From assembly GCA_004347685.1 (NCBI GenBank), contig SLTJ01000032.1:118371-182370 (forward strand): a stretch of DNA of 64,000 bases, in the 5' to 3' direction. Shown here in pieces: positions 12,594 to 64,000 of the stretch; positions within the stretch are counted from its first letter, which is position 1, and each line of letters starts with the position of its first letter. Below the pieces are notes generated by a model. It was not told the origin of the DNA. It did no database searches and saw only the letters and a program-made list of their open reading frames with translations. The translations under genes and the position numbers were made by a program. This stretch comes from Clostridia bacterium (lineage in GTDB: Bacteria; Bacillota; DSM-521; Neomoorellales; SLTJ01).

Positions 12594-13462
12594 ATGGTAG
12601 ATTTCCTGAAACGGCTGGATGAGTTCCGCAGGCAGGAGGAGAGCGAGGCCTGGCAAGGCACCTTTGCCGAGTACCTGGATATGGTGGTGGAAAGGCCACG
12701 GGTCGCCAGGACGGCGCATGCTCGCATTTATGATATGATCGTGGCCGCCGGAGTGGAAGAAAAGGACGGTCAGAGAAGATACGAGTTTTTCTCCCGGGAA
12801 ATCTTTGGGTTGGAAAAGACCCTGCAGCGGCTGGTCGAGGAATATTTTCATTCCGCGGCCCGGCGCCTGGATGTACGCAAGCGCATTCTTCTGTTGATGG
12901 GGCCGGTAAGCGGAGGCAAGTCAACTATCGTGAACATGCTCAAAAGGGGGCTCGAGCGCTATTCCCGTACCGAGGAAGGGGCCATGTACGCCATCGCCGG
13001 CTGCCCCATGCATGAAGACCCCCTACACCTGATACCGCGGGAACTACGTCCGGAGTTCGCCGAGAAATACGGTATTGTCATCGAAGGCAGCCTCTGCCCG
13101 GTATGCAGGTTAATGGTGGAGGAAAAGTACCGTAACCGGGTGGAGCAGGTGCCGGTGAAACGCATCTTCCTTTCTGAGGAAAACCGGGTGGGCATTGGCA
13201 CCTTCAGCCCCTCTGATCCCAAGTCCCAGGACATCGCCGACCTGACAGGCAGCGTGGACTTCTCCACCATTGCCGAATATGGCTCGGAATCTGATCCCCG
13301 CGCCTACCGGTTTGACGGCGAGCTCAACAAGGCCAACCGGGGGCTGATGGAATTCCAAGAAATGCTCAAGTGCGACGAAAAATTTCTCTACAACCTCCTC
13401 AGCCTTTCCCAGGAAGGGAATTTTAAGGCAGGCCGCTTCGCCCTGATTTCGGCGGATGAAAT
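12594..13462 (+). CDS. prkA: PrkA serine protein kinase, 5' segment (gene interrupted by ICE)
   Basis: MVDFLKRLDEFRRQEE..., Walker A LLLMGPVSGGKST, ...EMLKCDEKFLYNLLSLSQEGNFKAGRFALISADE. After 13460 the ORF reads into unrelated element sequence and stops at 13643. Confidence 0.9.
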
Positions 13463-13632
13463 GACTGTTGCTTCATTGTGCCAAAAACCTCATGCTTGTT
13501 TTAGAGGGCTTATCTTCCTGATTATACCACACTTAGGAAGCGGTAAGGGCCATTTTTTGATGCGGGTCTTCCCCAAGGGGCCGGGTCGTGCTCCGTCCCT
13601 TCGTGCCCCCCTGCTCCGGAGAAGCAACAAGC

Positions 13633-13944
13633 AACAGCGGTAAGAACCAGGAGCAGCTCAGGCCATACCTGGTTTTTTGTGTCTGGCCCCCTACCCCTCC
13701 CCTGGGAGGGGTTTTTGGTATGGAAGCGACGCCTCGGCGTCGCCAGTCAAAGCCTGCCGGCCCCGGCCTGATTATACCGGCGCGGGCACCCCGGTCCGGC
13801 AAGGGTAAAGGCCGTGAGCATATCCTCCCTGCGGTCCGGTATCCCTCCCGGCCCCTCCCTTACGGTCGGCCCTTGCCGGCCCGCCCGCGCAAGGCCTTGC
13901 TCCCAAGGCCGGCAGGCCAAGTTCAAGAGAGGGGGAGCAAGCCA
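13633..13944 (+). repeat. Multi-hairpin module, copy A (paralog of 35879-36196)
   Basis: About 310 nt. The core is near-identical to the region upstream of radC. Contains terminator-like AACCAGG..CCTGGTT+T-run, CCCTCC/GGAGGG and GCGACGCC/GGCGTCGC hairpins, a TGaTTATAC box and a long stem. Confidence 0.8.
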
Positions 13945-14181
13945 ATGGCGCAAAGGGTACTCAATGACCACCAGTTGGCGGTGAACCGCCGGGAGGGAGC
14001 AAAAGGGGGAGGAAGCGGCGTAATGGTTCTCCAGGGCAGGCATGGAAAGATCATTATCGACGAGCCGGTGATCAAACAGCCAACGAGGGAGGACATTGAG
14101 GGTGTCTACAGGGTGCTGGTGGAGTGCTTGTTGAACCAGCACAGGAGGGAACAGATGGCGCAAGAAGTAAAGGTGAACTAG
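13945..14181 (+). CDS. Small hypothetical protein (paralog of 62632-62853)
   Basis: GAGGGGGAG RBS + ATG. The core LQGRHGKIIIDEPVIKQPTREDIEGVYRVLVECL is near-identical to the right-end ORF. Confidence 0.55.
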   Translation: MAQRVLNDHQLAVNRREGAKGGGSGVMVLQGRHGKIIIDEPVIKQPTREDIEGVYRVLVECLLNQHRREQMAQEVKVN

Positions 14182-14207
14182 TCCGGCAAACCAAGCCGGC
14201 ATAGGTC

Positions 14208-14237
14208 GTGCCAAGTCCGCAAGACGGGCTTGGCACG
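14208..14237 (+). repeat. 30-nt hairpin repeat (left copy)
   Basis: GTGCCAAGTCCGCAAGACGGGCTTGGCACG. The same sequence with 1 mismatch occurs at 15338-15367. Confidence 0.8.
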
Positions 14238-14402
14238 ATCACTATTCAAGGGCCGAGATTGGGGATGATCTGGAAAAGAGGAAAAGGAAGAAAATGGCTT
14301 TACTGAAGGCCTTCGGTTGAAGGGCCTTTTTCTTCTCTGCCCGAAATGGTATAATATGACTGAAGGAGGAGACGGGAGAGTTCATTCCATTGGAGGAACA
14401 AA

Positions 14403-14588
14403 ATGAACGATGCCAGCATTTGCCCGAGCTCTGGAGGGAATTTAGAGGATAGAAGCATCCAGATTGACTTTCGCCACCAGGGCCGCTTAATTGTGGTGGA
14501 AGGCATCCCAGCTCAAGTCTGCAAAGACTGTGGGGAGCAGGTGGTATCCGCCAGCACATCGAAGGATATTGACGCTTTGCTATGGTAA
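14403..14588 (+). CDS. YgiT-type zinc-finger protein (MqsA N-domain-like)
   Basis: CPSSGG...VCKDCGEQV zinc ribbon. TGGTATAAT extended -10 about 45 nt upstream. Confidence 0.6.
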   Translation: MNDASICPSSGGNLEDRSIQIDFRHQGRLIVVEGIPAQVCKDCGEQVVSASTSKDIDALLW

Positions 14589-14613
14589 CTTAGGAAAGGG
14601 AGGAGTGAGCAGG

Positions 14614-15009
14614 GTGACGGAAGAAAGGCTGAGAGAAAGGCTGGAAAACTATAAAAAGGCCTTGAAACGTCTTGAGGAAGCTCTGGGTAAAAAACCAGAT
14701 CCGTATATTTACGACTCAGTCATAAAAAGGTTTGAGTTCACCTACGAACTGGCGTGGAAACTAATGAAGGCATTGATCGAATACCAGGGCGGGGAGAGTG
14801 TGTCGTTTCCGAGGGGCATTTTCAAAGAGGCTTATGCCAGGGGGCTGATCAAGGACGGAGAAGTGTGGCTGGGTATGTTAGAAGACCGGAACTTGACGAG
14901 TCACACTTATGATGAGGCCAGCGCCAAGAAAATCTATCAACGCGTGAAAGACCTTTATGCTGTACACCTGGCCCTGCTGGCCCAAATTGTGGAAAGGGAA
15001 TTGGAATAG
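14614..15009 (+). CDS. HI0074-family nucleotidyltransferase substrate-binding (HEPN) protein
   Basis: LENYKKALKRLEEAL...RFEFTYELAWKLMK...RNLTSHTYDE (HEPN Rx4-6H). AAAGGGAGGAG RBS before the GTG at 14614. Confidence 0.75.
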   Translation: MTEERLRERLENYKKALKRLEEALGKKPDPYIYDSVIKRFEFTYELAWKLMKALIEYQGGESVSFPRGIFKEAYARGLIKDGEVWLGMLEDRNLTSHTYDEASAKKIYQRVKDLYAVHLALLAQIVERELE

Positions 15010-15011
15010 TG

Positions 15012-15338
15012 ATGTTTGGCCTGAAACAGGATACTTTGGCGGCAATCAGGCTGGTATTGCAGCGCTACGCGCAGGTGGAACGGGCCGTCATTTTCGGTTC
15101 CCGGGCCAGGGGGGATTTTATGCCTAATTCCGATATTGACCTTGCCGTTTACTGCGATAACGAGCTGCCCCGCGGACTATATCTCGACCTGGATGAAGCG
15201 GTGGGAATTTATAAAGTGGATGTTGTAAATCCAAACCAAGTGCGGAATCAAAAATTGCGCCGCAGAATTGCGGAGCAGGGCGTGGAGATTTACGTTCGAC
15301 CTACTGGCCAGGTACTCGAACACGAGGTGAAGCATTAG
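15012..15338 (+). CDS. Minimal nucleotidyltransferase (MNT) partner of HEPN
   Basis: IFGSRARGDFMPNSDIDLAV motif. Start overlaps the HEPN stop. Confidence 0.8.
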   Translation: MFGLKQDTLAAIRLVLQRYAQVERAVIFGSRARGDFMPNSDIDLAVYCDNELPRGLYLDLDEAVGIYKVDVVNPNQVRNQKLRRRIAEQGVEIYVRPTGQVLEHEVKH

Positions 15339-15427: not shown

Positions 15428-17020
15428 TTATGGCAGGATCAGAGAACTAAAGCGCGGGACTACCCTTAGATCGTATCGCCCCTTGCCGGTTTTGGTAAGT
15501 TCCACCCGGTCAATGATAGACGACAGGATCTTGTTTTTTTCCGTCTTATCGGTTGCCTTCCTGTAAACCTCTAGGGCGCTTTTCACATCGGACTTGAAGG
15601 CGATGATGGCGCGCTCGACCTCCTGACTTTCCTGGTTCTTCTCCAGGGGTATGATTTTATCCAGGCTGGCCAGTTCTTGCTCTATTTCCTTCTTGCGCCT
15701 GAGAAAGTCCTCGTCACTGTAAATGCCGGCCTCGTACTTGTCAAAAATAAAGTCGAGCCTTCGTTGAAGGTCTTTTCTCTTCTTCTCGACCATCGTGGCT
15801 ACGTCCAAGGGGTTTTCCGCCTTCCTGGTGGTTTGCTGGTATTCTTTTTCGTAGATTGCTTTGAGCTCTCCGTTGTCCAGGGTTCCCAGGTGCGCCAGGG
15901 CGAGCAAAATGTCCCGTTCCACGTCGCGGTACTTGACGAAGGTACAACCGTCAGTATTGCACCACAGGAATTCTTTTTTGTAGACGCTTACCGAGCCGTC
16001 CTTTTTTCTGTAGTGCTGCGTAGAGTACTGGCGGATCATCCGGCGGCCACACTTCGTGCAAATGACCAGCCCCGCCAACTCACAGGGGGAGAAATCCAGC
16101 TTCGTATGGGGCAGGCGCCGGCTGTTTAGTTTATTCTGGGCCAAGTTCCACACCTCTCTCGTGATGATAGGTTCGTGGGCATTTTCTACCACAATCCAGT
16201 CTTCTTCCGGCCGGGGGTAGTATTTGTTGCCAATCCTTTTCCGGGTACGGTACTTGACCGTGCCGATATAGGCCACGTTCTCAATGACCCTTTGTACCGT
16301 TAAGTAGGACCAGCCACCTTTACCGTTTCTGGGGCTCGGTATGCCTAAGCGGTTCAGGTAGCCGGCGATGGCGCGGAAGGCCACGTCCTTGACGTTTCCA
16401 TCCGCCTGCTCCATGCCGTAGACGTACAGGTCAAAAATCATGCGCACGATGTTAGCTTCTTCCTCTACAATTTCTAGCCTGGTGGTCTTGCTGTTCAAGG
16501 AGTAGCCATAAGGGGTGGCACCCACCACCCAGCGCCCCTCGTGGGCCAGGTTCAGTTTGGAGGAAAGCATCCTTTCGCGGATCATCTCAAACTCTTCCCT
16601 GGCGAAGAAAAGCTCGAACCGGATTTGCCTGGCGTCGGAAGGGTTTTCTATGTCGTAAAGCTTGTAGGGCGTAATAATGTAAATCCGCTTTTCCTTGATG
16701 AGGTCGAAGATCTCCCCCATATCCGAGTAGGAACCGCGGCCCAGGCGGGCGATCTCCTTGACGGCGATGGCGTTATACCTTCCCTCCCGCAACCACTTTA
16801 GAACTTCCTGGAAGACTGGCCTGGTTTCGATCTTGTCCCCAGAACCTATTTCTTCGGCCATATCGTAAGGAATGGAAATGTCGTCAAGGACCTTGGTCAT
16901 AATCTTCTTTTGCGTGGACAGGGTATCCTCCCCTGTTCGCCGTTCCCGCTCAATATCCTGTCTAGAACGGCGAAGGTAACAGATGATCTTCTGGACATTG
17001 GCGTAATCGCTTTTGGTCAT
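15428..17020 (-). CDS. Large serine recombinase (integrase of the element)
   Basis: 530 aa. N-terminal resolvase domain (ICYLRRSRQD catalytic Ser context, GSGDKIETRP), recombinase domain, Cys-rich zinc ribbon (CTKCGRRM...CNTDGC) and coiled-coil C-terminus. Confidence 0.9.
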   Translation of the reverse strand: MTKSDYANVQKIICYLRRSRQDIERERRTGEDTLSTQKKIMTKVLDDISIPYDMAEEIGSGDKIETRPVFQEVLKWLREGRYNAIAVKEIARLGRGSYSDMGEIFDLIKEKRIYIITPYKLYDIENPSDARQIRFELFFAREEFEMIRERMLSSKLNLAHEGRWVVGATPYGYSLNSKTTRLEIVEEEANIVRMIFDLYVYGMEQADGNVKDVAFRAIAGYLNRLGIPSPRNGKGGWSYLTVQRVIENVAYIGTVKYRTRKRIGNKYYPRPEEDWIVVENAHEPIITREVWNLAQNKLNSRRLPHTKLDFSPCELAGLVICTKCGRRMIRQYSTQHYRKKDGSVSVYKKEFLWCNTDGCTFVKYRDVERDILLALAHLGTLDNGELKAIYEKEYQQTTRKAENPLDVATMVEKKRKDLQRRLDFIFDKYEAGIYSDEDFLRRKKEIEQELASLDKIIPLEKNQESQEVERAIIAFKSDVKSALEVYRKATDKTEKNKILSSIIDRVELTKTGKGRYDLRVVPRFSSLILP

Positions 17021-17089: not shown

Positions 17090-17144
17090 GCTATTCCAGA
17101 CCCCTTTCGATGGTTTAGAATTGAAGAGTTCTGGAGGTGGGCAA

Positions 17145-17507
17145 GTGAACCACGTCTCTTTGATTGGCAGGTTGGCTGGCGATCCCTGCTTACGTTACAC
17201 CGCGAAGGGAACCGCTGTCACCGGGTTCGTGCTGGCAGTGGAGAGGCTACTTCAACCCGACGACCAAGCGGACAGGGCGGTGGAGTTTATCAAGGTGGTG
17301 ACCTTCGGCAAGGTGGGGGAGGCCTGCTCGGGGCACCTTTATAAAGGGCGCCGGGTCGCAGTTGAGGGATCCCTGCGGACCGCAAGGTGGCAGGGAGAAG
17401 ATGGACGGGTGCGGCAGCGGGTGGAGGTTGTGGCTCGGTTAGTGGAGTTCCTGGACGGGAAGCGCAAAAATGACCAGGGTAATGAAGAAAATGAGGCTGC
17501 CGGTTGA
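17145..17507 (+). CDS. ssb: Single-stranded DNA-binding protein
   Basis: VNHVSLIGRLAGDPCLRYTAKGTAVTGFVLAV...VTFGKVGEACSGHLYKGRRVAVEGSLRTARWQ OB-fold pattern. GGAGGTGG RBS. Confidence 0.85.
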   Translation: MNHVSLIGRLAGDPCLRYTAKGTAVTGFVLAVERLLQPDDQADRAVEFIKVVTFGKVGEACSGHLYKGRRVAVEGSLRTARWQGEDGRVRQRVEVVARLVEFLDGKRKNDQGNEENEAAG

Positions 17508-17649
17508 GAATGGGTATTTTCTATGGTATAATCTTACAAGACGGGCTGGTAGTGCCACGGAATCGCCATGATTCTGGGGCAAACCATAAAGATTGACCTG
17601 GAATTCCCTTCCCGGCGGCAGGGACAGCCCGTGTACTCCCGATAGGGCT

Positions 17650-18159
17650 TTGCCGGGGACCGGAGGGGGTGAGATTACGGCAAAAGCATCTATCTATCTG
17701 GAAACAACCATCCCCAGTTACTTGGCAGCCTTCCCGAGCCGCGATATTGTAGTAGCTGCCCACCAACAGATTACGCATGACTGGTGGGTACATGAGCGAC
17801 ACCGGTTCGAGCTGTTTATTTCAGAGACTGTATTGGCGGAGTGTCAATTGGGTGATCCGGAGGCTGCTCAACGCCGGTTGTCTTATTTATCCGGGTTACC
17901 GGTTCTCTCGATGGACGATAGCGTGCTTAAGTTGGCCAAAGTGTACCTGGAGGCCTTATCCATACCTGCCCGGTCCGGACTTGATGCCTTGCACCTGGCC
18001 TGTGCCGTGAGCCATGAAATAGATTACGTGCTAACCTGGAACTGTAAGCATTTGGCACACGGGGAAATTCGCCGGGCTTTACAAAAAATAAATCTCCAAA
18101 AGGGGTTGTTTATCCCCGCCATCGTTACCCCTGAGGAGCTTATGGAAAGGAGTGAGTAA
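17650..18159 (+). CDS. PIN-domain protein (VapC-like toxin candidate)
   Basis: IYLETT..., ISETVLAEC, GLDALHLACAV, VLTWNCKHL acidic/terminal motifs. The start is uncertain (TTG 17650 or nearby). Confidence 0.5.
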   Translation: MPGTGGGEITAKASIYLETTIPSYLAAFPSRDIVVAAHQQITHDWWVHERHRFELFISETVLAECQLGDPEAAQRRLSYLSGLPVLSMDDSVLKLAKVYLEALSIPARSGLDALHLACAVSHEIDYVLTWNCKHLAHGEIRRALQKINLQKGLFIPAIVTPEELMERSE

Positions 18160-18337
18160 GGTGTGGGAAGACCCTATCGTTTCCGAGGTGCGACGCCTGC
18201 GCGAGCAAATGTTAAAAGAAGCAGGGAGCCTGGAAAATCTGGTCAAGAAGTTACGAGAGAGCGAGAAGAGACATGCTAATCTACTTGTGACTAGAGGATT
18301 GGCCCGGGAGCGCAAGGTTCAACCCAGTGGTCATTGA
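18152..18337 (+). CDS. Small hypothetical protein (possible partner of the PIN protein)
   Basis: 61 aa, helical and charged. Start overlaps the PIN stop. Confidence 0.35.
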   Translation: MSKVWEDPIVSEVRRLREQMLKEAGSLENLVKKLRESEKRHANLLVTRGLARERKVQPSGH

Positions 18338-18510
18338 AAAGAAATCGCTATCAAGCCTTTAACACCCCAGAAAACAAAGGGGGTAGTTAGGGATCTTGAG
18401 GCCCTACCCCAGAAAGGTAGGCTTGTTTAGTCCGGCCCGAGGACCCTTCACTAACACGGTGGAGGGCTTTTTTATTGCCCAAAAACGTTACCTGGAGGTG
18501 CTGAAAAGAA

Positions 18511-18906
18511 GTGCGCAACCGCTACCTGCGCCTGGCCGTCTCCCTGGCGGCGGCCCTGGCGGTAAGTTTTTTCCTGGTAGCCTCCACGGGCGAAAAGCCA
18601 ACGGTGTGCCGGCCCGTGGTGGTGGTGACCAAGGTGGAGAGACTACTTCAACCCGACGACCAAGCGGACAGGGCGGTGGGGTTTATCAAGGTGGTGACCT
18701 TCGGCAAGGTGGGGGAGGCCTGCTCGGAGCACCTTTATAAAGGGCGCCGGGTCGCAGTTGAGGGATCCCTGCGGACCGCAAGGTGGCAGGGAGAAGATGG
18801 ACGGGTCCGCCAGAGGGTGGAGGTGGTGGCCCGGTCAGTGGAGTTCCTGGACGGGAAGCGCAAGGGCGACCAGAATGATGCCGAAGGAGATGAGGCAGCC
18901 GGTTGA
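18511..18906 (+). pseudogene. Chimeric cpaB'-'ssb recombination scar
   Basis: The first 41 codons are identical to cpaB (20153...). From 18634 the sequence matches the 3' two-thirds of ssb (17240-17507). The upstream 18443-18510 duplicates 20083-20152. Confidence 0.75.
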
Positions 18907-18967
18907 GGATGGGCATTTTTTATGGTATGATCTTTCTAAAGCCTGGTAGTGCCAAGGAGACAATAAA

Positions 18968-19603
18968 GTGCTGGACCAAACCATAAGGATTGATCTCGAG
19001 TTACCAAGGGAACTGTTCGTCAAAGGCCGAGAATCATCTCAACGGGCAAAAATGGAGGCACTGAAAAGGCTCGCGGCAACCTTTTACGCAGATGGGAGCT
19101 TATCCCTGGGCAAGGCGGCAGAACTGGCCAAGGTATCCAAGCAAGAAATCGCGGATTTTCTAGCAACGTGTAACATTCCCTTGAACTATGATGTCAACGA
19201 GTTGGAGGATGATTTAGCTACCATTGCTGCAATGTGGCCTACGATGTTCAATAATGTGCTGGGGGTGAACTGTGACGTGACTGCGATCAGCAGCAAGGAC
19301 CTGACAATCGCCAGGAAAGTGAAACAAAGCCTCACTGAAAAAATCCCACTGTATGAGGTTCGGCTATTCGGTTCGCGGGCGCGGGGGCAGGCCAGTGCCG
19401 ATTCGGACCTTGATCTATACCTGGAAACCGGGCCTCTCTCTCGCGAGCAAAGGCGATTGATAAGCGAGGTGGCCTGGGAAATTGGTTTCGCTAATGACGT
19501 GGTTATTTCTCCGTTGGTTGTTTCTCAGGGTGAGGCCAGTAATGGTGCGTTTTCCGTTTCCACGCTTTGTAGAGCAATTAAGGCTGAAGGGATTTCGGTA
19601 TGA
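18968..19603 (+). CDS. UPF0175 antitoxin-like domain fused to MNT nucleotidyltransferase
   Basis: N-terminal part SLSLGKAAELAKVSKQEIADFLATCNIPLNYDVNELEDDL (UPF0175-like). C-terminal part RLFGSRARGQASADSDLDLY (MNT). No stop codon between them. Confidence 0.6.
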   Translation: MLDQTIRIDLELPRELFVKGRESSQRAKMEALKRLAATFYADGSLSLGKAAELAKVSKQEIADFLATCNIPLNYDVNELEDDLATIAAMWPTMFNNVLGVNCDVTAISSKDLTIARKVKQSLTEKIPLYEVRLFGSRARGQASADSDLDLYLETGPLSREQRRLISEVAWEIGFANDVVISPLVVSQGEASNGAFSVSTLCRAIKAEGISV

Positions 19604-55954: not shown

Positions 55955-56467
55955 GTGAGCAGTATGAAGAAGTGGGGGTTATTGGGCGCCTCCATAATCC
56001 TCGCTGCGGGCATGATGCTGTTCTTCTTCCAGGACAGCGAGGCGGGGGCAGCTACGGGAGGCGTCACCGCCCAGGCCAAAGTTAACCCCAACATCTCCGT
56101 GAGCGTCAGCCCCGCCAGCATAGTGCTTGAAGGGGTACCTGGTTCTACAGTTATCAGTACCAGCCCCGTAGTGGTCAACGTCAAGTCCAACGTGAACTAC
56201 AACTTGAGCGTCAAGGCGACCCAGGACCTAACGGATGCCAGTGTGAGCCCGGCCTTGACCCTCCCTATCAGCCGCTTGAGCTGGGCCCCGGCGGGAACAG
56301 GAACGTGGACGGCCTTTAGCCTGACGGACACAAGCATCGCTACCAATGAACCCAAGGCCGCTGGAACAGGGAAAGACTACAGTTTCGATTACCAGTTTGC
56401 CATTGACATCAATGACCCGGTAGGCACCTATTCCACGGATATTGTCTATACGGCCGTGGCCTACTAG
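55955..56467 (+). CDS. Secreted beta-rich protein (candidate surface/fibre subunit)
   Basis: Signal peptide MKKWGLLGASIILAAGMMLFFF...AGAA. Alternating beta-strand pattern with Ser/Thr/Val/Asn-rich composition, ends ...GTYSTDIVYTAVAY. Confidence 0.6.
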   Translation: MSSMKKWGLLGASIILAAGMMLFFFQDSEAGAATGGVTAQAKVNPNISVSVSPASIVLEGVPGSTVISTSPVVVNVKSNVNYNLSVKATQDLTDASVSPALTLPISRLSWAPAGTGTWTAFSLTDTSIATNEPKAAGTGKDYSFDYQFAIDINDPVGTYSTDIVYTAVAY

Positions 56468-56646
56468 TCCATGCAACTGGCGTACAGGGATTGCTATTCT
56501 GTCAGAGGGGCAAGCCGGGAAGCGAGGGGCAACAGTCCTGCAGCTAGTGGCTTGTGCTTCTCCGGCTTGCTTCCTTAGTCTGTCATTTGCTTGGCCGAAG
56601 GGTAACGCCTAGCTGATGTTACGGGTGGTGGGACGGAGGGCTGGCG

Positions 56647-58026
56647 TTGAAGAACCTGGAACGGAAAGCGCTTTTCTTTTTTCTCGGCTTATTTTTCGGG
56701 CTGCTGTTTACTCCAACGGCCTATGCGGAAGTAAGGCTGGGGCTTACGCCGGCCAAGGTAGAGTTGTCTTTGGCCGGAGGTGAAGGTGGCAGTGGAGAAA
56801 TAACCGTGGTCAACGAAGGCAGCGAGCCTTTGGAAGTAAGCTTCTACGTTCGTGACTATTACTTTGCCGACGACGGCAAGATCGTTTTTGCCGAGGGTCA
56901 GGAAAAAAGGTGGTCGGCCAGCAAGTGGCTTGAAGTGGGGCAAGTATCCGGCCGCATTTCCCCGGGCGCAAGTATCAGGCTTCCCTACCGGGTACGCGTG
57001 CCACTAGGTGCCGAGCCCGGCAGCCACTGGGCGGTCATCTTCGCCGAAGGCAGGGCGATAGGGAACAATACGCGCACCTCGCCCCTGGGGGTCCGGGTGG
57101 GGGCAGTGGTGCTGATCACTGTTCCCGGCGACGTGATTGCCAAGGGAGAAATACTCGACTTCCGCGTCCCTGCAGTTGGCTATAAGAAGGTTCCCGTCAC
57201 CTTCAAGTTCCGCAACAGCGGCAATGTCCATATCAACCTGCGCCCCCAGCTAGAGGTGTTCCACAAGGGTCAGGTTATTAACCGGACGCAGTTGGACGAG
57301 GTTGTTTCTTACCCGCAAACCGTCCGCGAGGTAAAGGGCTACCTGCAGCTTGGGAATATCTGGGGACTGCACGAGGCCGTGCTGAAAATCGAACAGGAGG
57401 GGGGTACTATGGTTTACCGGGCTCCATTTCTTTTGCTTCCCTGGCCGTGGATCCTGGGTGGCCTTCTTCTTCTCGCTTATCTTTTGGCCTGGCTTATCAT
57501 ACGCAGGAGAAGGAAACAGGCCAGCCCGAGACTTGACGAATACCCGGCTCCCGGCGAACTGGCCGTGGGGAGAGAAGCGGCTGCGGTCCGCCAAGCCCTG
57601 GGCATAAGCGCGGCCCTCCCGTTGCCAGCGCAGCGGCCTTCCTCCCGGTCCAGCCGGGCTGATTTTACCAAGACACTCAATATCTTGACGGAAACCGTCG
57701 AACAGCTACGGCAGGAAAACGCCCTGCTAAGGCGCAATCTGGAAGACCTCTCTAGCCAGGCGAGCAGCGAACGCTGGGAAAAGGTGGTGGCAGAAAGCCT
57801 CATTGACGCCCAGACGGAAATTGAAAACGTCCGGGCTAAAGCCGCGGCCAGCATAGAGAGGGCCAACCGTGAGGCCCACAAGCAGATGGCCGAGATCGAA
57901 AACCGGTTTAGAGAAAAGTTCAAGGTATTGCTCAATGATTACAAGGCCACGCTCTCGGACGTAGAGAGGTTTTTGGGCAGGCTTGGTAGTGCGGGAGGAG
58001 CAGTAGATGAGGGCGGAGACAGTTAA
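56647..58026 (+). CDS. Membrane protein: Ig-like ectodomains + TM + DivIVA-like coiled-coil tail
   Basis: Signal peptide. Beta-sandwich-like ectodomain (GEITVVNEGSEPLEVSFYV...). TM segment LLLPWPWILGGLLLLAYLLAWLII + RRRRK. Cytoplasmic coiled coil (VEQLRQENALLRRNLEDL...). Confidence 0.6.
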   Translation: MKNLERKALFFFLGLFFGLLFTPTAYAEVRLGLTPAKVELSLAGGEGGSGEITVVNEGSEPLEVSFYVRDYYFADDGKIVFAEGQEKRWSASKWLEVGQVSGRISPGASIRLPYRVRVPLGAEPGSHWAVIFAEGRAIGNNTRTSPLGVRVGAVVLITVPGDVIAKGEILDFRVPAVGYKKVPVTFKFRNSGNVHINLRPQLEVFHKGQVINRTQLDEVVSYPQTVREVKGYLQLGNIWGLHEAVLKIEQEGGTMVYRAPFLLLPWPWILGGLLLLAYLLAWLIIRRRRKQASPRLDEYPAPGELAVGREAAAVRQALGISAALPLPAQRPSSRSSRADFTKTLNILTETVEQLRQENALLRRNLEDLSSQASSERWEKVVAESLIDAQTEIENVRAKAAASIERANREAHKQMAEIENRFREKFKVLLNDYKATLSDVERFLGRLGSAGGAVDEGGDS

Positions 58027-58483
58027 TCCTTTCATTGAAGAGATGGTGAAGGTTTTCCAAGAGGAACTGGCCATAACCTGCCAAAAGAAAAGCGTTTCCC
58101 TCCAGCATGTCCCAGTAACCTGGCATGAGGTAAACGTGCTTATAGACATCAGGGGTGCGGCGGAAGCGGCGGTTATCTACAGTATGGAGGAAGATACGGC
58201 CTGTGCCCTGGCAGGGGCCTTTCATAAAGATAAGTCCTTCCAGGGCTACTGCTACGAAGTAGAAGATTCGGTCAAGGAGTTATTTAACATTGTCAGCGGG
58301 CAAGCCCTGAAAATACTGGAGAATAAAGGTTTAGCCTGTACCCTGCCGGGACCGCCGTCCGTCATTATAGGGCGCCTGCGCGCCGTCCCTGTAGTACGCC
58401 GCCCCCTGTTAGTGGTAATCTTGGATACGCCTGTTGGCTTGGTCCGGGTGAGCGTGTCAATGGTGGATAAGGCTGGCCGATAA
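58007..58483 (+). CDS. CheX/CheC-like domain protein
   Basis: VNPFIEEMVKVFQEEL...VNVLIDIRGAAEAAVIYSMEEDTACALAGAF...ELFNIVSGQA follows the CheX pattern. Confidence 0.65.
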   Translation: MRAETVNPFIEEMVKVFQEELAITCQKKSVSLQHVPVTWHEVNVLIDIRGAAEAAVIYSMEEDTACALAGAFHKDKSFQGYCYEVEDSVKELFNIVSGQALKILENKGLACTLPGPPSVIIGRLRAVPVVRRPLLVVILDTPVGLVRVSVSMVDKAGR

Positions 58484-58554
58484 ACTGTTTTCCTTCGCAC
58501 TTTCTGCTTACCCCCATGATCGTGGCACAATAGTAATCATTTAGGAAGGGGATC

Positions 58555-59178
58555 GTGTTGTCGAGCGTTAGTGCCTACGTGGAGGCCGATGAGAAGGAGC
58601 CACCGGTACATAGCGGAACGCCGGTAGATTTTGAAGCCATTTATTCTCATTACCTTAACCTGCTATACTGGATGACACACCGTTTCTGCAGTCCTGGATC
58701 ACCGGACTTTGAAGATTACCTTCAGGAAGCCGCTATTGCTCTGTGGGAAGCAACGCAGAGCTATGATCCCCATAAAGGTAACGCCAATGCCTTCATAGCT
58801 AACTGCGTGCGGTGCAGGCTAATAAACTATTTGAAGGCCGAGAGGCGCCGGCAGCCCACCATCTCCCTTGATGCCCAGCCGGACGATGCCAACGGACTAT
58901 ATGAAAGGTTAGGCCTTCCCAGCGCCAACGTGGAGGCCATAGTTATCGGGAGAGAAGAACGGAAAAACCTAATTGACAGCCTTACCCAACTAGAAAGGAA
59001 TTGTGCCCTTTTATTTGCCTGGGGTTTCTCCTACGATGAAGTAGCCAGGGTTTTGGGCATAACCACGAAATCCGTGGATAATGCCTTGCGTCGGGTACGG
59101 CTAAAGGGATGCCGCGCCTTTACTCCTCTAAATAAATTCCGGGGAGGGAGAAAGGATAAACTGGAGGCGAGTGTTTGA
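58555..59178 (+). CDS. Sigma-70-family (ECF-like) RNA polymerase sigma factor
   Basis: Region 2 (DYLQEAAIALWEATQSYDPHKGNANAFIANCVRCRLINYLK) and region 4 HTH (FSYDEVARVLGITTKSVDNALRRVRLK). Confidence 0.75.
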   Translation: MLSSVSAYVEADEKEPPVHSGTPVDFEAIYSHYLNLLYWMTHRFCSPGSPDFEDYLQEAAIALWEATQSYDPHKGNANAFIANCVRCRLINYLKAERRRQPTISLDAQPDDANGLYERLGLPSANVEAIVIGREERKNLIDSLTQLERNCALLFAWGFSYDEVARVLGITTKSVDNALRRVRLKGCRAFTPLNKFRGGRKDKLEASV

Positions 59179-59362
59179 CGCCCTGGAGGCGTATGACCGC
59201 TTGTTACAGGAAAACCGGGTAGTTGAGGCCCTCGAAATTCTTTACCAGGAGGCCGGAGCAGATAAGGTCACTGACGATGATTGGCGGGTAGCCCTGGCCC
59301 GTTTCCGTACCGTCTATGGCCGACCTCCCCTCTTCCCTGGGGAGCAAGACGGCGGCGAGTGA
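59171..59362 (+). CDS. Small hypothetical protein
   Basis: 63 aa. Start overlaps the sigma gene stop (possible anti-sigma or accessory protein, with no direct evidence). Confidence 0.3.
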   Translation: MFDALEAYDRLLQENRVVEALEILYQEAGADKVTDDDWRVALARFRTVYGRPPLFPGEQDGGE

Positions 59363-59524
59363 AATAACTCTTCCTTAAAACCAGGTTAGTCAACCTTTTC
59401 CCCTGGGTCTCGATAGCTTTTGGCAGGAGATTGGAATAAAATGTCGAAGAAACAAATTAAGCCATTAGAAAGGACTGGACACAGTGGCAAGGCCTGTCGA
59501 AAAGATGAACAATTGTTCAATTAT

Positions 59525-59569
59525 GGGGGGGGGGGGGTAACAATTGCTATAGATGCCATTTAGTGGAAA
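59525..59569 (+). repeat. Poly-G tract (G13) + conserved 32-nt box, copy B
   Basis: G13 at 59525-59537, then TAACAATTGCTATAGATGCCATTTAGTGGAAA (30 of 32 identical to copy A). Confidence 0.9.
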
Positions 59570-59679
59570 TATGTCTCTGCTGCTTTTTTCTCCCTCTCTG
59601 TGGCTTTGCCCGGTGTGGAAATACTCCTGCCCGCTGTCGTTCCCCTGACATTTTAACTGCAACTTCACTTTCTCCCAAT

Positions 59680-59775
59680 ATCCTACGCTCAAGGCAAACC
59701 TGTCGAAAGGCAGGGACGCAAAGCCATGGGTCTAAAGCCCCTTTTGGGGGTATGATCGCCAGGCTGCCGCAGGAT
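59680..59775 (+). promoter_or_regulatory. c-di-GMP-I (GEMM-I) riboswitch #2
   Basis: ACGCUCAAGGCAAACCUGUCGAAAGGCAGGGACGCAAAGCCAUGGGUCUAAAGCC... is a near-textbook match to the Vc2-type aptamer. Confidence 0.88.
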
Positions 59776-59791
59776 TGTTTCTGTTTGTATC

Positions 59792-59814
59792 GGCAGCTCA
59801 AGCTGCCATTTTTT
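59792..59814 (+). terminator. Expression-platform terminator of riboswitch #2
   Basis: GGCAGC-TCAA-GCTGCC + ATTTTTT. GCTGCC is also part of the aptamer 3' P1 region, allowing mutually exclusive folds. Confidence 0.65.
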
Positions 59815-59833
59815 GTTAAGAGGGAGTAAGAAG

Positions 59834-60562
59834 GTGGTAGATCTGTCAGCAGGTTTGTCAGGGGTTGAAAACCTTCGGACATTTATCGGGGCCATGCAGG
59901 AGTACGACCCCACATTACTTAGCCATAGCTTGGGGGTAACTAATATCGCTTGGCAGTTGGCTTCTTACCTAAAAGTGGAAAATGGCTTTCAAGTTCTGCT
60001 GCAGGGCGCCCTTCTCCATGATATAGGCAAGACCTTAATTGACCGGGCCATTTTACAAAAGCCTGGCCCGCTAAGCCCAGCGGAGCAAGAGATCATGAAG
60101 CGTCATCCAGTGGACGGCGCGCAAATGCTGGCCGAAAAAGGCTTTAGCAAGGAACTCCAGGTGGTAGTGCTCTATCACCACGAGCGTTGGGACGGCAAGG
60201 GTTACCTGGGCCTAGCCGGGAATGACATGCCGCTTAATGCTCAAATTGTTGCCCTGGCTGACGCCATAGACGCCATGTCCAGTGACCGCCCGTACCGGGA
60301 GGCTCTTCCGCCGCTCGCGGTTTACGATGAGATTGAGAAAGGTGCTGGCAGCCAGTTTTCTTCTGAATTGGTTGGCCGTCTTGCTCAGGCAGGCTTTTGG
60401 CCCACAGATGGTTTGGGGAAAGAAAGGGTGCTGCATCTCATTAATCGGGAGCGCCAGTGGCTCAATTTCTTGGCGGAGCAGTTTCACAGTCTGCGGCACC
60501 CCCTGGTCCAAATACAAAACAGGAGGCTGGATAAGTTGGTAACGGCATACTATGGGGAATAG
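59834..60562 (+). CDS. HD-GYP-type c-di-GMP phosphodiesterase (GYL variant)
   Basis: HSLGV...LLHDIGK...HHERWDGKGYLGL...ALADAIDAMSSDRPYR. GAGGGAG RBS before the GTG at 59834 (track start 59813 lies inside the terminator). Confidence 0.8.
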   Translation: MVDLSAGLSGVENLRTFIGAMQEYDPTLLSHSLGVTNIAWQLASYLKVENGFQVLLQGALLHDIGKTLIDRAILQKPGPLSPAEQEIMKRHPVDGAQMLAEKGFSKELQVVVLYHHERWDGKGYLGLAGNDMPLNAQIVALADAIDAMSSDRPYREALPPLAVYDEIEKGAGSQFSSELVGRLAQAGFWPTDGLGKERVLHLINRERQWLNFLAEQFHSLRHPLVQIQNRRLDKLVTAYYGE

Positions 60563-60832
60563 GATTGCGTAGTGCAGGAACCCGTCAATCACTTTTTTGA
60601 GGGGTGAGGCAGGCTGGACTACAGTCAGCCCGGCGTGACTGCGCCCTAGGCATCACTTCCCAGTCCTGGTTTAAGAGCAGTGATTAACATCTTACCCCCT
60701 GGGTCCCTACATAAGTGAATTGCCAGGGGTACAACGCCGGCCAGTTTCCAAATCATAATAGGGAGAGCAGCCGAATAGCCCTTTCCCGTGTCTGATCCAT
60801 TGTTTACTCGTGCCAGGGAGGTGGGCCAGATG

Positions 60833-60862
60833 TTGACGTATTCTTCCTAGACATGGTAAGAT
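60833..60862 (+). promoter_or_regulatory. Sigma-A-like promoter upstream of riboswitch #3
   Basis: TTGACG, 18 nt spacer, TAAGAT with TG at the extended -10 position. Confidence 0.5.
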
Positions 60863-60883
60863 ATGGTATATACGATCCAATAC

Positions 60884-60978
60884 CAGCGCTAAGGGTAAAC
60901 TTACCAAAAGGTGAGGACGCAGAGCCATAGGGTCTAAGGTGCTGGTGTGATGGCACTACGACAGCCTGGCCGCCGCTG
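60884..60978 (+). promoter_or_regulatory. c-di-GMP-I (GEMM-I) riboswitch #3
   Basis: CAGCGCUAAGGGUAAACUUACCAAAAGGUGAGGACGCAGAGCCAUAGGGUCUAAGG... P1 is CAGCG/CGCTG. More divergent than #1 and #2. Confidence 0.7.
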
Positions 60979-60989
60979 TAGGACGGTCT

Positions 60990-61019
60990 GACCTGCCCTT
61001 TCTCGCGGCAGGTCTTTTT
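60990..61019 (+). terminator. Expression-platform terminator of riboswitch #3
   Basis: GACCTGCC-(9 nt)-GGCAGGTC + TTTTT. Confidence 0.7.
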
Positions 61020-61124
61020 GTCTCTAGAAGGGCTGTTCTGTATTGCCGATAAACAGTGTCGGGGTTGGCGATAAAACTTCGGCGCTTCGCTCGGCGGCTT
61101 CCCCAAAAAGGAGGGCGGTGAGCC

Positions 61125-61370
61125 ATGCAGCGGAAGCCAAAACTGCGGGAATTGATCGTTAGAGTTAAAAACGGTGAGGAGGACGCCGTCCTTGAAGTGG
61201 TGCAGCGGTTCATTCCACTGGTCAGGAAGTACAGCCGTCGCATGGGCTATGACGAAGCCTGTTCCGACCTGGTCGTCTGGATTGTAAGCGCGGTCCACAG
61301 GTATGAACCGCGTACCACCTGGGGCCGGGACGAACTCCAGAAATATTTCGCGAGCAAACGGCATGACTAG
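61125..61370 (+). CDS. Small HTH protein (Tn916 orf8 / HTH_16-like)
   Basis: LRELIVRVKNGEEDAVLEVVQRFIPLVRKYSRR resembles the small conjugative-transposon HTH/sigma region-2-like proteins. AAAGGAGGG RBS. Confidence 0.55.
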   Translation: MQRKPKLRELIVRVKNGEEDAVLEVVQRFIPLVRKYSRRMGYDEACSDLVVWIVSAVHRYEPRTTWGRDELQKYFASKRHD

Positions 61371-61388
61371 GAAAAATTTTTTTTGGTA

Positions 61389-61424
61389 GGGGGTTGTCAA
61401 AATGCCCCCTACTTTCTCTTTATT
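61389..61424 (+). promoter_or_regulatory. Element-specific promoter-like box, copy 1
   Basis: GGGGGTTGTCAAAATGCCCCCTACTTTCTCTTTATT, part of a ~75-nt repeat shared with 62060-62135. Confidence 0.45.
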
Positions 61425-61514
61425 AAGTAGAGGGCAAGAAATGAAAACCGGGGGAGGTGAAAAAGATGGAACCCTACACCTGACGACGGTGAATACGACC
61501 TGGAAGAGGCTAGG

Positions 61515-61904
61515 GTGGTGGCCTGGTTCGTGACCGGCCTACGCCATGAAGCGCTCCGGTTGGCCAGGAAACACAGGCGACTGAAAGAGCGTGAGTTGCT
61601 CATCCTAAACGAACAATTGAAGAACGAGGCGGGAGGTGAGGCCATAGCCAGAATGCTCAGTACCGTTAACCCACCGCCGGACCTCCTTACCGAATTAGAG
61701 AACAAGCTGGTCCTCCAGGAAGCCCTCGCGTTGCTCACGCCGCTGCAGCAGAGGGTGGTCGTGGCAACGGTCCTGGAGGGTGTAACGGAACAAGAATTAG
61801 CCGGGGAAATGGGGGTGACCAAGCAGGCGGTAAACCGGATCAAAGAACGGGCTCTGGACAAGTTGCGAAAATATTTTGTCCTGGACAAGCCTCCCAGCAA
61901 GTAG
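61515..61904 (+). CDS. Small sigma-70 region-4 protein (Tn916 orf7-like)
   Basis: LTPLQQRVVVATVLEGVTEQELAGEMGVTKQAVNRIKERALDKLRKYF region 4 HTH. The start is ambiguous: the strong RBS+ATG at 61466 is in the -1 frame relative to this ORF and stops after 5 codons. Confidence 0.6.
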   Translation: MVAWFVTGLRHEALRLARKHRRLKERELLILNEQLKNEAGGEAIARMLSTVNPPPDLLTELENKLVLQEALALLTPLQQRVVVATVLEGVTEQELAGEMGVTKQAVNRIKERALDKLRKYFVLDKPPSK

Positions 61905-62077
61905 AGCCTAGTCCAGGACGGACAACCACAACCGCCCCGATCCGCAGGTAGTGGATTGCCGTTGATCATTGTACTCTATTCACGACTTGAAGTAAACCCG
62001 GAAGAGAATCCCTGTCACCGTGCCGGTAACTCTTCTCTACAAATTGCTGAACTAGCCTGGGTAAAAATTTTCCTTGA

Positions 62078-62113
62078 GGGGGTTGTCAAAATCCCCACTG
62101 CTTTCTCTTTATA
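62078..62113 (+). promoter_or_regulatory. Element-specific promoter-like box, copy 2
   Basis: GGGGGTTGTCAAAATCCCCACTGCTTTCTCTTTATA. Confidence 0.45.
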
Positions 62114-62117
62114 GGGT

Positions 62118-62551
62118 GAAGGGTCAAGAAGTGGGTCTTGTAGAACGGGTGCAACAAGTGTTCTTTGAGAATGTAACGCCGTTACCGCCCGGAGCGCCAG
62201 GCATTGCGGTGGCGGCGAGGCTTGGTGCCCGTGCTCACGCCGGTGTACCTGACCGTATCAGGCCGGAAGGTGGCACAAGGCTATAGTGCCACCACAAACG
62301 GTTGGATAAGGTTCGGGGAACCACCCTCCCTCCGGAGAGGGTCTGGGCGTGGAGTGAGCCCTGTCGGCCGCGGTAAAAAACGCGGTGGGAACCACAGGCG
62401 GGGTAGGCGCGCGCCAGCAGCGAGGCGCAAGCGGGTACCAAGGGCATTTGCCCAATAGGAGGCTGGGGGCCGGGCAACAGATCCAGCAAACTCGGAACCG
62501 GGGACTTCTTAAAGTAGAGCAAGAGCCGAGCCCCTGAAACGTTAGCAAACT
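62118..62551 (+). other. Hairpin-dense non-coding stretch (candidate ncRNA or single-strand origin)
   Basis: About 430 nt with no credible ORF. Local stems GGTGGCAC..GTGCCACC, CCCTC..GAGGG, CCGCG..CGCGG, GGGCA..TGCCC. Preceded by box copy 2. Confidence 0.35.
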
Positions 62552-62585
62552 GGGGTTGTCCAAAAATTCGACTTTATTTCATAGG
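62552..62585 (+). promoter_or_regulatory. Promoter-like box, copy 3 (divergent)
   Basis: GGGGTTGTCCAAAAATTCGACTTTATTTCATAGG, upstream of the small ORF 62632. Confidence 0.35.
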
Positions 62586-62631
62586 ACAAACCGCCGGGTG
62601 AATAGCATTAGCAGTAGAGGGGTGACGGCCC

Positions 62632-62853
62632 ATGCTCATTTTGCAAGGCAAGAACGGGCGGATCATCATAGACGAGCCGGTCATTAAAGAGCCCACGAGG
62701 GAGGATATTGAGGGCGTCTACAGGGTGCTGGTGGAGTGTTTGATTGCACAGGCACTGAGGGAACAAAATCAGGAGGCCGGTGGGAAAAAGGAGGCGGGGG
62801 AGAGGGATACAGAACCCAGTCAGCGAATTATTTCCACAGTACCATACGGGTAA
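62632..62853 (+). CDS. Small hypothetical protein (paralog of 13945-14181)
   Basis: MLILQGKNGRIIIDEPVIKEPTREDIEGVYRVLVECL... GAGGGGTG RBS. Lies 130 nt from attR. Confidence 0.55.
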   Translation: MLILQGKNGRIIIDEPVIKEPTREDIEGVYRVLVECLIAQALREQNQEAGGKKEAGERDTEPSQRIISTVPYG

Positions 62854-62986
62854 AGAGGCGGCAACTATAGCATTGGTTCTTCATATTATTACAGGTTTTA
62901 AGCGCGAGCTTTATAGTCAGGAAGAGACCACCATCGAGGTGGTTCTTTAAGCAAACGGTAATTGAACTAATGAGTATACAATCATT

Positions 62987-64000
62987 GAAATAATCGTAGC
63001 CCACACCAATGAGGCCGAGTACCGGGCCTTTATAAGCAACCCCAAAAACGAGGCCCTGCGCTCCCGCATCATCGTCATCCCGGTGCCCTACAACCTGAAG
63101 GTGAGCCAGGAAGTAAAGATCTACGAGAAGCTCATCCGCGAGGCGGATATTGACGTGCACGTGGCTCCTTACGCCCTGTGGACGGCAGCCATTTTTTCCG
63201 TGCTGACGCGCCTCAAGGAATCCAAGAAGCAGGGCATGGACTTGCTGAAGAAAATGAAGCTGTACGACGGCGAGGACGTAGAGGGGTTCAAGCAGAAGGA
63301 CGTGGCCGAGCTGCAGGCCGAGGCCGAAGGAGAGGGCATGAGCGGAATAGATCCTCGTTACGTGATAAACCGCATCTCCAGCGCCCTGATTACCAAGGAT
63401 ACGAAATGCATAAACGCCCTGGACATTCTGCGCGCCTTAAAGGATGGGCTGGACCAGCATCCCTCCATAACCAGGGAGGACCGGGAGAAATATTTTAACC
63501 TCCTGGCCTTGGCCCGCCAAGAGTACGACGAGGTGGCCAAGAAGGAAGTGCAGCGGGCCTTTGTTTACTCCTATGAGGAATCGGCCCGGACCTTGTTTGA
63601 GAATTACCTGGACAACGTGGAGGCCTTCTGCAATGGGGTGAAGGTCAAGGACCCCATCAGCGGCGAGGAACTGGAGCCGGACGAGAAACTCATGCGCTCC
63701 ATTGAGGAACAGATCGGGGTGGCGGAAAGCGCCAAGAAGGCTTTCCGCGAGGAAATCCTCATCCGCCTTTCTACCTATGCCCGCAAGGGCAAGCGTTTTG
63801 AGTACAGCTCACACGAACGGCTGCGCGAGGCCATTGAAAAAAAGCTATTTAGCGACCTGAAGGACGTGGTAAAAATAACCACTTCCAGCAAGACTCCCGA
63901 CCCCGAGCAGCTCAAGCGTCTCAATGCCGTGGTGGACCGGCTGGTATCCAGCCACGGGTATTGCCCTGTCTGTGCCAACGAACTTCTGAAATACACCGGA
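62987..64000 (+). CDS. prkA: PrkA serine protein kinase, 3' segment (continues beyond window)
   Basis: E-IIVAHTNEAEYRAFISNPKNEALRSRIIVIPVPYNLKVSQEVKIYEKLI... is open to the last base of the window. Absent from the ORF track because it has no stop codon in the window. Confidence 0.9.

Follow-up and report, generated by a model that had tools for sequence, protein, structure and literature searches.

In the literature searched, the elements that interrupt sporulation genes are small units of non-prophage type, prophages or defective forms of the latter (PMC6957869, PMC5595907, PMC10747680), and as a rule they sit in genes of the mother cell (PMC6957869). In the SPbeta prophage of Bacillus subtilis, which splits spsM, the large serine recombinase (LSR) SprA is expressed constitutively from a sigma-A promoter and the timing comes from the recombination directionality factor (RDF) SprB, a protein of 58 aa (PMC5499854). 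For sprB a sigma-E/K promoter is known, in addition to one that responds to stress (PMC5499854), and sprB and sprA lie at opposite ends of the prophage, converging on the att site. An engineered chimera of SPbeta and ICEBs1, an integrative and conjugative element (ICE), demonstrated that a SprA/SprB-driven ICE which integrates in a sporulation gene works (Suzuki et al. 2019; PMC6957869). Here we analyze a window of 64,000 nucleotides, by which we mean the whole stretch of DNA studied (positions 118,371 to 182,370 of contig SLTJ01000032.1, assembly GCA_004347685.1, a metagenome-assembled genome (MAG) of a Clostridia bacterium), in which an element of 49.5 kb with a transfer apparatus divides the gene prkA. 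It looks like a natural counterpart of the chimera. The latter is artificial and based on ICEBs1, whereas the present element interrupts prkA and has an unrelated backbone with a MobP3 relaxase, VirB4 and a Tad pilus.

The idea that the integrity of prkA is regulated is not new. TIGER lists prkA among 19 novel candidate cases of 'regulated gene integrity', based on two serine-integrase islands, Gym2.15 (15 kb) and Pth2.10 (10 kb) (GCF_000166075.1, GCF_000178395.2; PMC7192596). As in our window, these are serine-integrase islands within the AAA_PrkA domain for which regulation of gene integrity was proposed, and prkA appears in that paper as a table entry only, without analysis of att sites, RDF or cargo (PMC7192596). 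They differ from the present element in size (10-15 kb) and in position, with a coordinate in the AAA_PrkA hidden Markov model (HMM) of about 122, as read from their table, versus 275 here; on these coordinates an identity of the two sites was rejected. We take the hosts of Gym2 and Pth2 to be Geobacillus sp. Y4.1MC1 and Parageobacillus thermoglucosidasius, respectively. In the intervening-element literature searched prkA was not found, nor was there an earlier report of a natural ICE as a sporulation intervening element or a description of the codon-293 site of prkA, its breadth, its att structure, its candidate RDF or its ICE cargo. A preliminary description of the locus had spoken of what may be a new prkA element, which as worded does not hold, since the codon is shared by related LSRs in many genera (see below) and prkA was already a TIGER candidate (PMC7192596).

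In B. subtilis prkA is sigma-E-dependent, and its deletion lowers the sporulation frequency and leaves growth unaffected (PMC4415436). This sigma-E dependence (PMC4415436) fits the rule that intervening elements sit in mother-cell genes (PMC6957869), and on this evidence from B. subtilis the split gene is a mother-cell sporulation gene. In the window the 5' fragment of prkA, with GTG 12582 or ATG 12594 as start codon, reads up to GRFALISADE, the last codon of which ends at 13460, and the frame then stops inside the insert at 13643. The 3' fragment (IIVAHTNEAEYRAF...) resumes at 62990 and continues past the window edge, and the core TGAAAT is present at both junctions (13457-13462 and 62986-62991). 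When the 49,529 bp from 13463 to 62991 are removed in silico, a stop-free prkA open reading frame (ORF) of 630 codons is obtained. The joined protein was aligned with the intact 630-aa PrkA of Moorella/Neomoorella and is colinear with it over 99% of the length, with 81-83% identity. The junction peptide GRFALISADE/IIVAHTNEAE, split after Glu293, is the same in the intact genes of Neomoorella glycerini and of a JGI metagenome contig. Of these points, those of the preliminary description, from the fragment ends and the TGAAAT core to the uninterrupted ORF, could all be confirmed. The insert encodes an LSR and its excision, performed in silico, rebuilds an intact ORF, as for the known intervening elements of sporulation genes. 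The break is located at position 275 of the 358 positions of the Pfam AAA_PrkA model, past the Walker A motif and just ahead of the conserved IIVAHTN strand, and judging from the general AAA+ architecture a break between these two elements would leave neither half functional alone. No other PrkA match could be linked to the MAG. The GPI-family gene upstream of prkA is syntenic with N. glycerini, where yhbH and spoVR come after prkA.

As the source is a metagenome-assembled genome, the contig might falsely join an ICE to two prkA halves, and in an assembly from Logan that covers this LSR region the sequence is interrupted within a 330-bp repeat of the element. However, more than 20 independent loci have their junction at this very codon, which is far beyond chance, and the arm sequences at both junctions also recur in these more than 20 independent assemblies, isolates included. 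The GC content is 60.4% inside and 60.6% outside of the element. We therefore give an assembly artefact a next to negligible probability.

To define the recombination sites the two ends of the element were joined, which gives the attP ACAATCATTGAAATGACTGTTGCTTCATTGT with imperfect inverted arms, a quasi-palindrome of about 26+4+26 nt. The reconstructed attB contains GATTTCGGCGGATGAAATAATCGTAGCC and the reconstructed attP contains GTATACAATCATTGAAATGACTGTTGC. The element-side sequences at all mapped junctions fit one arm with the rough consensus, read outward, GAWTGTATACTCATTATACCAAAA, and the arms of each element are inverted repeats 4 bases apart (TGAA in the window, TGAG in L011; L-numbers designate the genomic loci or contigs compared). 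With a position matrix of the att arm, in which the window's own arms were included, the ends of the element reach 28.4 and 27.5 bits, and the next best site in the 64 kb reaches 11.1 bits. Intact attP sites with two arms of about 26 nt were found in three unintegrated viral contigs of IMG/VR, directly past the LSR stop codon (L061, 4549-4620, centre TGAA; L070, 7590-7661, centre TTCA; L097, 2706-2777, centre TTCG), with the centre in both orientations relative to the LSR gene. As these contigs carry the same structure, the attP deduced from the window ends, already reported with its imperfect arms in the preliminary description, is independently confirmed. An attP with inverted repeats round a central dinucleotide and an attB with a short identical core are also the features of a SprA/SprB unit. 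Because the dyad axis T-GA-A of the window site runs through the GA of the Glu codon, in agreement with the attP of L061, L070 and L097, the 2-nt crossover is predicted to be the GA of codon Glu293.

A tandem array or a hidden internal att site was also considered and ruled out: the matrix scan gave no third arm and the window holds no second recombinase, so that a single element is present. Two further observations concern the att sequences. For the 12-mer CCTGATTATACC, which is similar to the outer part of the att arm (TCATTATACC), there are three exact matches on the + strand (13517, 13767 and 36017; 0.18 expected) and two with one mismatch (12430 and 26898); two of the three exact copies lie within the duplicated leader described below. 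The Desulfovirgula MAG contig DYEX01000059.1 (L013) breaks off directly behind the element arm, precisely at the Glu codon in the att core, as would be expected if the assembly graph branched there into integrated forms on one side and excised or empty ones on the other; this is only a hint.

The LSR gene lies 1,965 bp inside attL, as had been stated approximately (about 2 kb), and encodes the expected 530-aa protein, which is a homologue of SPbeta SprA over the full length (43% identity, E 3e-146). The proposed likeness to sporulation genes from which LSRs excise elements is supported in this respect. The perfect sigma-A-type promoter of the gene was found again as well (TTGACA-17-TATAAT). 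It had been brought forward as a caveat; however, sprA is likewise constitutive and takes its timing from sprB, so that such a promoter need be no obstacle to timed excision. With SPbeta the locus shares the SprA-type LSR with its housekeeping-type promoter, a small ORF (about 58-78 aa) that converges with the LSR on attP in the layout rdf -> att <- int, the inverted arms of attP round a central dinucleotide and a mother-cell sporulation gene split within its coding sequence. It differs in the target (Glu293 of prkA here, Lys138 of spsM in SPbeta), in the predicted crossover (GA here, AA for SprA), in a conjugative instead of a phage cargo, in the presence of two RDF-like copies and in the marginal likeness of the small ORF to SprB, and the prkA element is known from sequence alone.

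To see how widely the site is used, homologues of the LSR were viewed in their genomic context. When a single genome of each GTDB species was scanned, 43 LSR loci were obtained, which were searched with PrkA by tBLASTn, followed by mapping of the junctions at base level. At 17 or more of the 43, from Bacilli as well as from Clostridia, prkA fragments that break off behind this Glu codon stand beside LSR homologues with 40-69% identity. The hosts include Calderihabitans maritimus, Desulfofundulus thermosubterraneus (DSM 16057), Neomoorella stamsii (DSM 26217), Moorella mulderi (DSM 14980) and a Thermoanaerobacteraceae MAG, and further Terribacillus aidingensis, several Paenibacillus species (among them P. 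ottowii), Tumebacillus lipolyticus and Ferroacidibacillus organovorans; nine prophage-like contigs of IMG/VR show the same break. Judged by these junctions the Glu293 site of prkA is not a one-off, but one that related LSRs of many genera have in common. Relative to prkA, the LSR gene is found in either orientation, and in a rough neighbour-joining tree the prkA-using LSRs are widely spread, with the SprA/spsM group nested among them. The cargo varies from phage-like (L009 and the IMG/VR contigs) and metabolic genes (L007) to nearly none.

The prkA fragments present in these loci align over their full length without frameshift. At three loci (L030, L011 and L032) both halves were within the fetched DNA, and here the elements measure just 2.9-4.3 kb and have only the LSR and a small ORF of 52-64 aa in common. 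Frameshift-free halves together with such minimal elements are what would be expected to be seen were excision selected for. Like gin (in gerE of B. cereus), skin (sigK) and vfbin (spoVFB), the prkA family thus includes small elements, and the three, which contain little apart from the LSR and a small ORF, agree with gin and further reduced elements as described (PMC5595907, PMC6957869); the element of the window, in contrast, is the opposite extreme. Decay occurs as well, since at L003, L008, L020 and L021 only a prkA relic of about 38 aa is left beside the LSR. These relics (residues ~258-296, with IYADE in place of ISADE) adjoin the att arm, and nothing else of prkA is left (L003/L005, ~11631-11744; L008/L012, ~13314-13439; L020, ~5906-6046; L021, ~4055-4180); the one in L003 is flanked by two LSR genes of a prophage, placed tail to tail. 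The closest relative of the window LSR (L001, 7699-8667; also L002), with 92% amino acid identity, is truncated at 322 aa and has an internal deletion of about 150 bp, and L001 looks like a decaying member of the family.

A candidate for the RDF is a small ORF that is present in two copies in the window, here called L and R. Copy R has the location that sprB has in SPbeta and the small ORF has in L011 and L007, and the two copies share a stretch of 106 bp with 86% identity. An HMM built from seven members of the small ORF found 11 loci, always beside an LSR or an att end, with further copies beside the LSR in L001, L026, L028, L043 and L072. A phmmer search of 1.84 billion representative proteins returned only two close homologues; P0361 is 95% identical to copy R and P0362 (77 aa) is an orthologue of copy L that keeps the N-terminal extension. 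The sequence similarity to SprB is marginal (BLASTP with the L011 ORF, 38% over 42 aa, E 0.004 in a single comparison), and we therefore regard the ORF as a candidate RDF on association and position and not as a proven SprB homologue. Membership of the SprB family was also tried with profile methods and, with hhalign and HMM results marginal or negative, the label 'SprB-like by position' was chosen. The preliminary description had made any developmental control dependent on a directionality factor still to be found; this caveat is largely answered, in so far as a candidate now exists in two copies and also in minimal elements, whereas its homology to SprB is marginal. In L007 and L011 the motif CATAnGTT is conserved 22-23 nt upstream of the start codon of the small ORF.

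Copy L is preceded by a GC-rich leader of 330 bp that is found a second time in front of radC. The two leaders are 85.5% identical overall, with a core of about 200 nt that is almost identical, and the first codons of the genes behind them are shared too; a counterpart is present in L058 at 4592-4923. The leader folds more stably than shuffled sequence (z = -3.5), and in Rfam it has no match, with hits at chance level only for 35700-36300 and none at E <= 1 for 61900-63000, upstream of copy R. The duplicated leader may be an undescribed cis-regulatory RNA. Because the repeats end at the start codons of copy L and radC, the simplest reading is that copy L would be co-regulated with the transfer genes. 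The upstream region of copy R differs from that of copy L.

Taken together, we propose that the SprA-family LSR inserted the ICE into prkA by recombination of attP with attB at the GA of codon Glu293. The LSR would be made constitutively from its consensus sigma-70-type promoter and would alone be unable to excise the element; for excision the small SprB-like protein with its two copies would be required. Copy L seems to have captured the leader and the start codon of the radC/coupling-protein operon and would be expressed together with the transfer genes, resulting in excision for conjugation. Copy R, in the ancestral spot next to attR, would be the candidate for excision in the mother cell at the time of sporulation. 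This would rebuild prkA exactly, as SprA and SprB rebuild spsM, while the forespore would retain the integrated copy. A reversible insertion of the ICE at this prkA site by the LSR is, in our view, highly probable, and for developmentally regulated excision we see an even chance. To the account as a whole, i.e., reversible insertion and developmental excision with two RDF copies, we lean slightly. The developmental step and the division of labour between the two copies are put forward as hypotheses. The interpretation given in the preliminary description is partly supported and can be sharpened, in that the element is a SprA-family recombination unit with ICE cargo and a plausible RDF at a widely used prkA site.

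The gene content of the insert was determined by Pfam, NCBIfam and Rfam scans (Table 1). Between its bounding att sites the element encodes the integrase, a coupling protein and a VirB4-family ATPase with mating-pair formation genes, and its relaxase belongs to MobP3 (NF041499, 200.5 bits versus a cut-off of 150). Judged by these genes the insert is an ICE, and 'complete conjugative element', as it had been called, is a fair description as regards relaxase, VirB4, Tad and mating genes; however, the coupling-protein gene needs splicing of an intron and no origin of transfer (oriT) was identified in the element. The Tad/Flp pilus cluster looks complete. In Neomoorella stamsii (L019) and Moorella mulderi Tad-pilus genes follow the prkA-type LSR with the gene order of the window, and for this reason this type of ICE probably recurs in cultured species of the Moorella group. 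Thus the full ICE, which had been thought unusual, is so with regard to the literature, where we found no natural case, whereas the Tad genes of these two species suggest recurrence. The AAA ATPase resembles IteA, an anti-phage ATPase, with 227 bits, which is under the curated cut-off of 510, and together with the subtilase it is possibly defence cargo. The position of the cyclic di-GMP (c-di-GMP) riboswitches upstream of small ORFs, the HD-domain protein and the sigma region-4 protein suggests that c-di-GMP controls the regulatory region of the element.

Table 1. Coordinates of prkA, the att sites and the features of the element in the window.
Feature	Position	Strand	Remarks
prkA 5' fragment	12594..13460 (GTG 12582)	+	residues 1-293 counted from GTG 12582; Walker A GPVSGGKST; AAA_PrkA 2-275 of 358
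attL	13457..13486	+	core TGAAAT 13457-13462; predicted crossover GA 13458-13459; element-side arm ATGACTGTTGCTTCATTGTGCCAAAA 13461-13486
Leader repeat copy 1	13633..13956	+	ends at start codon of small-ORF copy L
sprB-like small ORF copy L, 78 aa	13945..14181	+	conserved core from ATG 14023; near attL
HEPN-type (NTase_sub_bind) and nucleotidyltransferase pair, toxin-antitoxin-like	14491..15338	+	similar pair in minimal element L011
Large serine recombinase, 530 aa, SprA (YokA) family	15428..17020	-	Pfam Resolvase, Recombinase, Zn_ribbon_recom
Sigma-70-type promoter TTGACA-17-TATAAT upstream of LSR	17089-17061	-	consensus match 12/12
SSB, PIN-domain protein, UPF0175/nucleotidyltransferase and HEPN pair	17121..20022	+	
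Tad/Flp-type pilus cluster	20153..26645	+	RcpC/CpaB, CpaE-like ATPase, CpaF, TadB-like, TadC-like, A24 prepilin peptidase, small ORFs
Surface protein, 1,724 aa, PKD/Ig-like repeats	29185..34359	+	also in sister element L058
RepA_N-type winged-helix protein	34742-35686	+	
Leader repeat copy 2	35879-36208	+	ends at radC start codon
radC	36197-36685	+	heads coupling-protein operon
Type IV coupling protein (VirD4/TraG-like) exon 1	37123..38490	+	ends ...FLLDEFG
Group II intron	38491..41007	+	starts GTGCG; reverse transcriptase-maturase-HNH ORF 39079-40896; domain V/VI 40911-41007 (Rfam RF00029)
Coupling protein exon 2	41008..41583	+	NVGKLPAM...
Mating-pair formation genes	41959..46493	+	TrbL/VirB6-like, TraC-like, VirB4-family ATPase (43807-45546), M23 peptidoglycan hydrolase
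AAA ATPase (IteA-like) and 769-aa S8 subtilase	46846..50173	+	
ParA-like ATPase, MobP3-family relaxase, actin-like ALP/ParM protein	50246..54433	+	relaxase 52054-53376
Regulatory region	55336..61904	+	extracytoplasmic function (ECF)-type sigma factor 58555-59178, HD-domain protein 59813-60562, sigma region-4 protein 61515-61904
Three c-di-GMP-I riboswitches (Rfam)	55336-55426, 59684-59772, 60884-60977	+	
sprB-like small ORF copy R, 73 aa	62632..62853	+	reads toward attR
attR	62960..62991	+	arm (reverse complement ATGATTGTATACTCATTAGTTCAATT) 62960-62985; core TGAAAT 62986-62991; predicted crossover GA 62987-62988
prkA 3' fragment	62990..64000, beyond window	+	PrkA residues 294-630

The group II intron within the gene of the coupling protein has an ORF with the Pfam domains RVT_1, Intron_maturas2 and HNH. 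When 38490 is joined to 41008, the resulting protein aligns gap-free and with 96% identity to an uninterrupted 647-aa protein of L058, a Desulfovirgula MAG, and the intron-less allele of this locus (L058, 7201) fixes both intron ends (38490 joins 41007/41008). As the gene is intact only once the intron is removed, the conjugation set depends on splicing at this place. On the DNA level L058 is 93-97% identical to the window over 32888-38490 and 41007-46611, and it shares only the conjugation backbone with it. The PrkA of the window, in contrast, is just 77% identical to that of the cultured Desulfovirgula thermocuniculi, the nearest comparison for the genus. From these identities the backbone was probably transferred recently between distant hosts.

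Such a distribution raises the question whether the ICE is a recent chimera, in which a resident prkA unit (attL, sprB-like ORF, toxin-antitoxin pair and LSR) was fused with a plasmid-like conjugative backbone and the conjugation genes may perhaps be uncoordinated with the recombination unit. While L058 has the backbone only, L001 shares with the window only the LSR module (~87% nucleotide identity over 17091-15412), a piece of small-ORF copy L (~79%) and the prkA flank, with a similarity that stops at the LSR promoter. Related VirB4 proteins are encoded on a Neomoorella plasmid and at another locus in the PH28_bin88 MAG, whose prkA is intact, which fits an exchange of recombination modules between backbones, and in experiments recombination units were interchangeable between elements (PMC6957869). 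However, the window has no internal att-like arm and no second recombinase, the duplicated leader ties an RDF copy to the transfer operon and so indicates integrated modules, and Tad genes adjoin prkA-type LSRs in two Moorella species. A composite with uncoordinated modules is thus quite improbable; it concerns the origin and not the function of the element and would be compatible with the account that we prefer.

More serious is the possibility that the conserved prkA stretch serves merely as a landing site, that the gene is inactive and that the ICE is excised only upon its own transfer circuitry. The element has its own regulators, i.e., sigma factors and three c-di-GMP riboswitches, which could run excision without any link to sporulation, and one of the RDF-like copies is under the leader of the conjugation operon. 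With B. subtilis consensus patterns no convincing sigma-E/K promoter was recognized upstream of either small ORF. Since the loss of prkA in B. subtilis only lowers the sporulation efficiency (PMC4415436), carriers could tolerate a dead prkA. In addition, the backbone was seemingly transferred recently, and because the ICE looks recently acquired, the intact prkA halves are weak evidence that selection has acted in this host; it is from the whole family that regulated excision is argued. Other observations also weigh against developmental excision. Searched as exact strings, attB (36 nt) and attP (30 nt) had 0 matches in JGI metagenomes, and at L001 a truncated LSR adjoins an intact N-terminal prkA fragment, so that decay without reconstitution happens. 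The comparison of the small ORF with SprB by hhalign reached only E 0.028, the HMM of the family does not retrieve SprB, and the small ORF has no Pfam or PHROG matches. Developmental excision further presupposes a sporulating host with a single prkA, two points that lie beyond the window.

However, frameshift-free prkA fragments are found in many genera, even where the element consists of the LSR and a small ORF only, and with such minimal elements a plain landing site is hard to hold unless excision matters to the host. All characterized splits of sporulation genes made by LSRs are developmentally excised (PMC5499854, PMC6957869, PMC5595907), and the second RDF-like copy, in the ancestral position, has a different upstream region. 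We therefore rate a plain ICE insertion as somewhat unlikely and keep to reversible insertion with developmental excision as the preferred account.

The host flank contains an OLE (ornate large extremophilic) RNA of full length (2132-2731, + strand, 511.6 bits). It is located between dxs and the gene for a polyprenyl synthetase and fits an anaerobic extremophile of the Bacillota as host.

A handful of sporulation genes are known to be rebuilt in a programmed manner by LSR elements, and the elements described in these cases were prophages or remnants of prophages. The present data point to codon 293 of prkA as a widely used site in Bacilli and Clostridia for elements of about 3 to about 50 kb, and they suggest that a conjugative element can be the intervening DNA. 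The two RDF-like copies offer a testable idea of how one recombinase may serve both horizontal transfer and development, and as several of the carriers are cultured type strains the hypothesis is directly testable. With a defined attP and attB and a candidate RDF, the system would also be a new LSR system for genome engineering. A further step, which we regard as distinctly unlikely, would be a natural ICE with the lifestyle of an intervening element that uses the terminally differentiated mother cell as conjugation donor. If this were true, the shared leader or the second RDF would be switched on in the mother cell, so that excision, repair of prkA and expression of the transfer genes coincide before lysis, and the spore would keep the integrated ICE while the mother cell, close to lysis, donates it. 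Glu293 of prkA would then be a major undescribed hotspot of programmed gene rearrangement in Bacilli and Clostridia.

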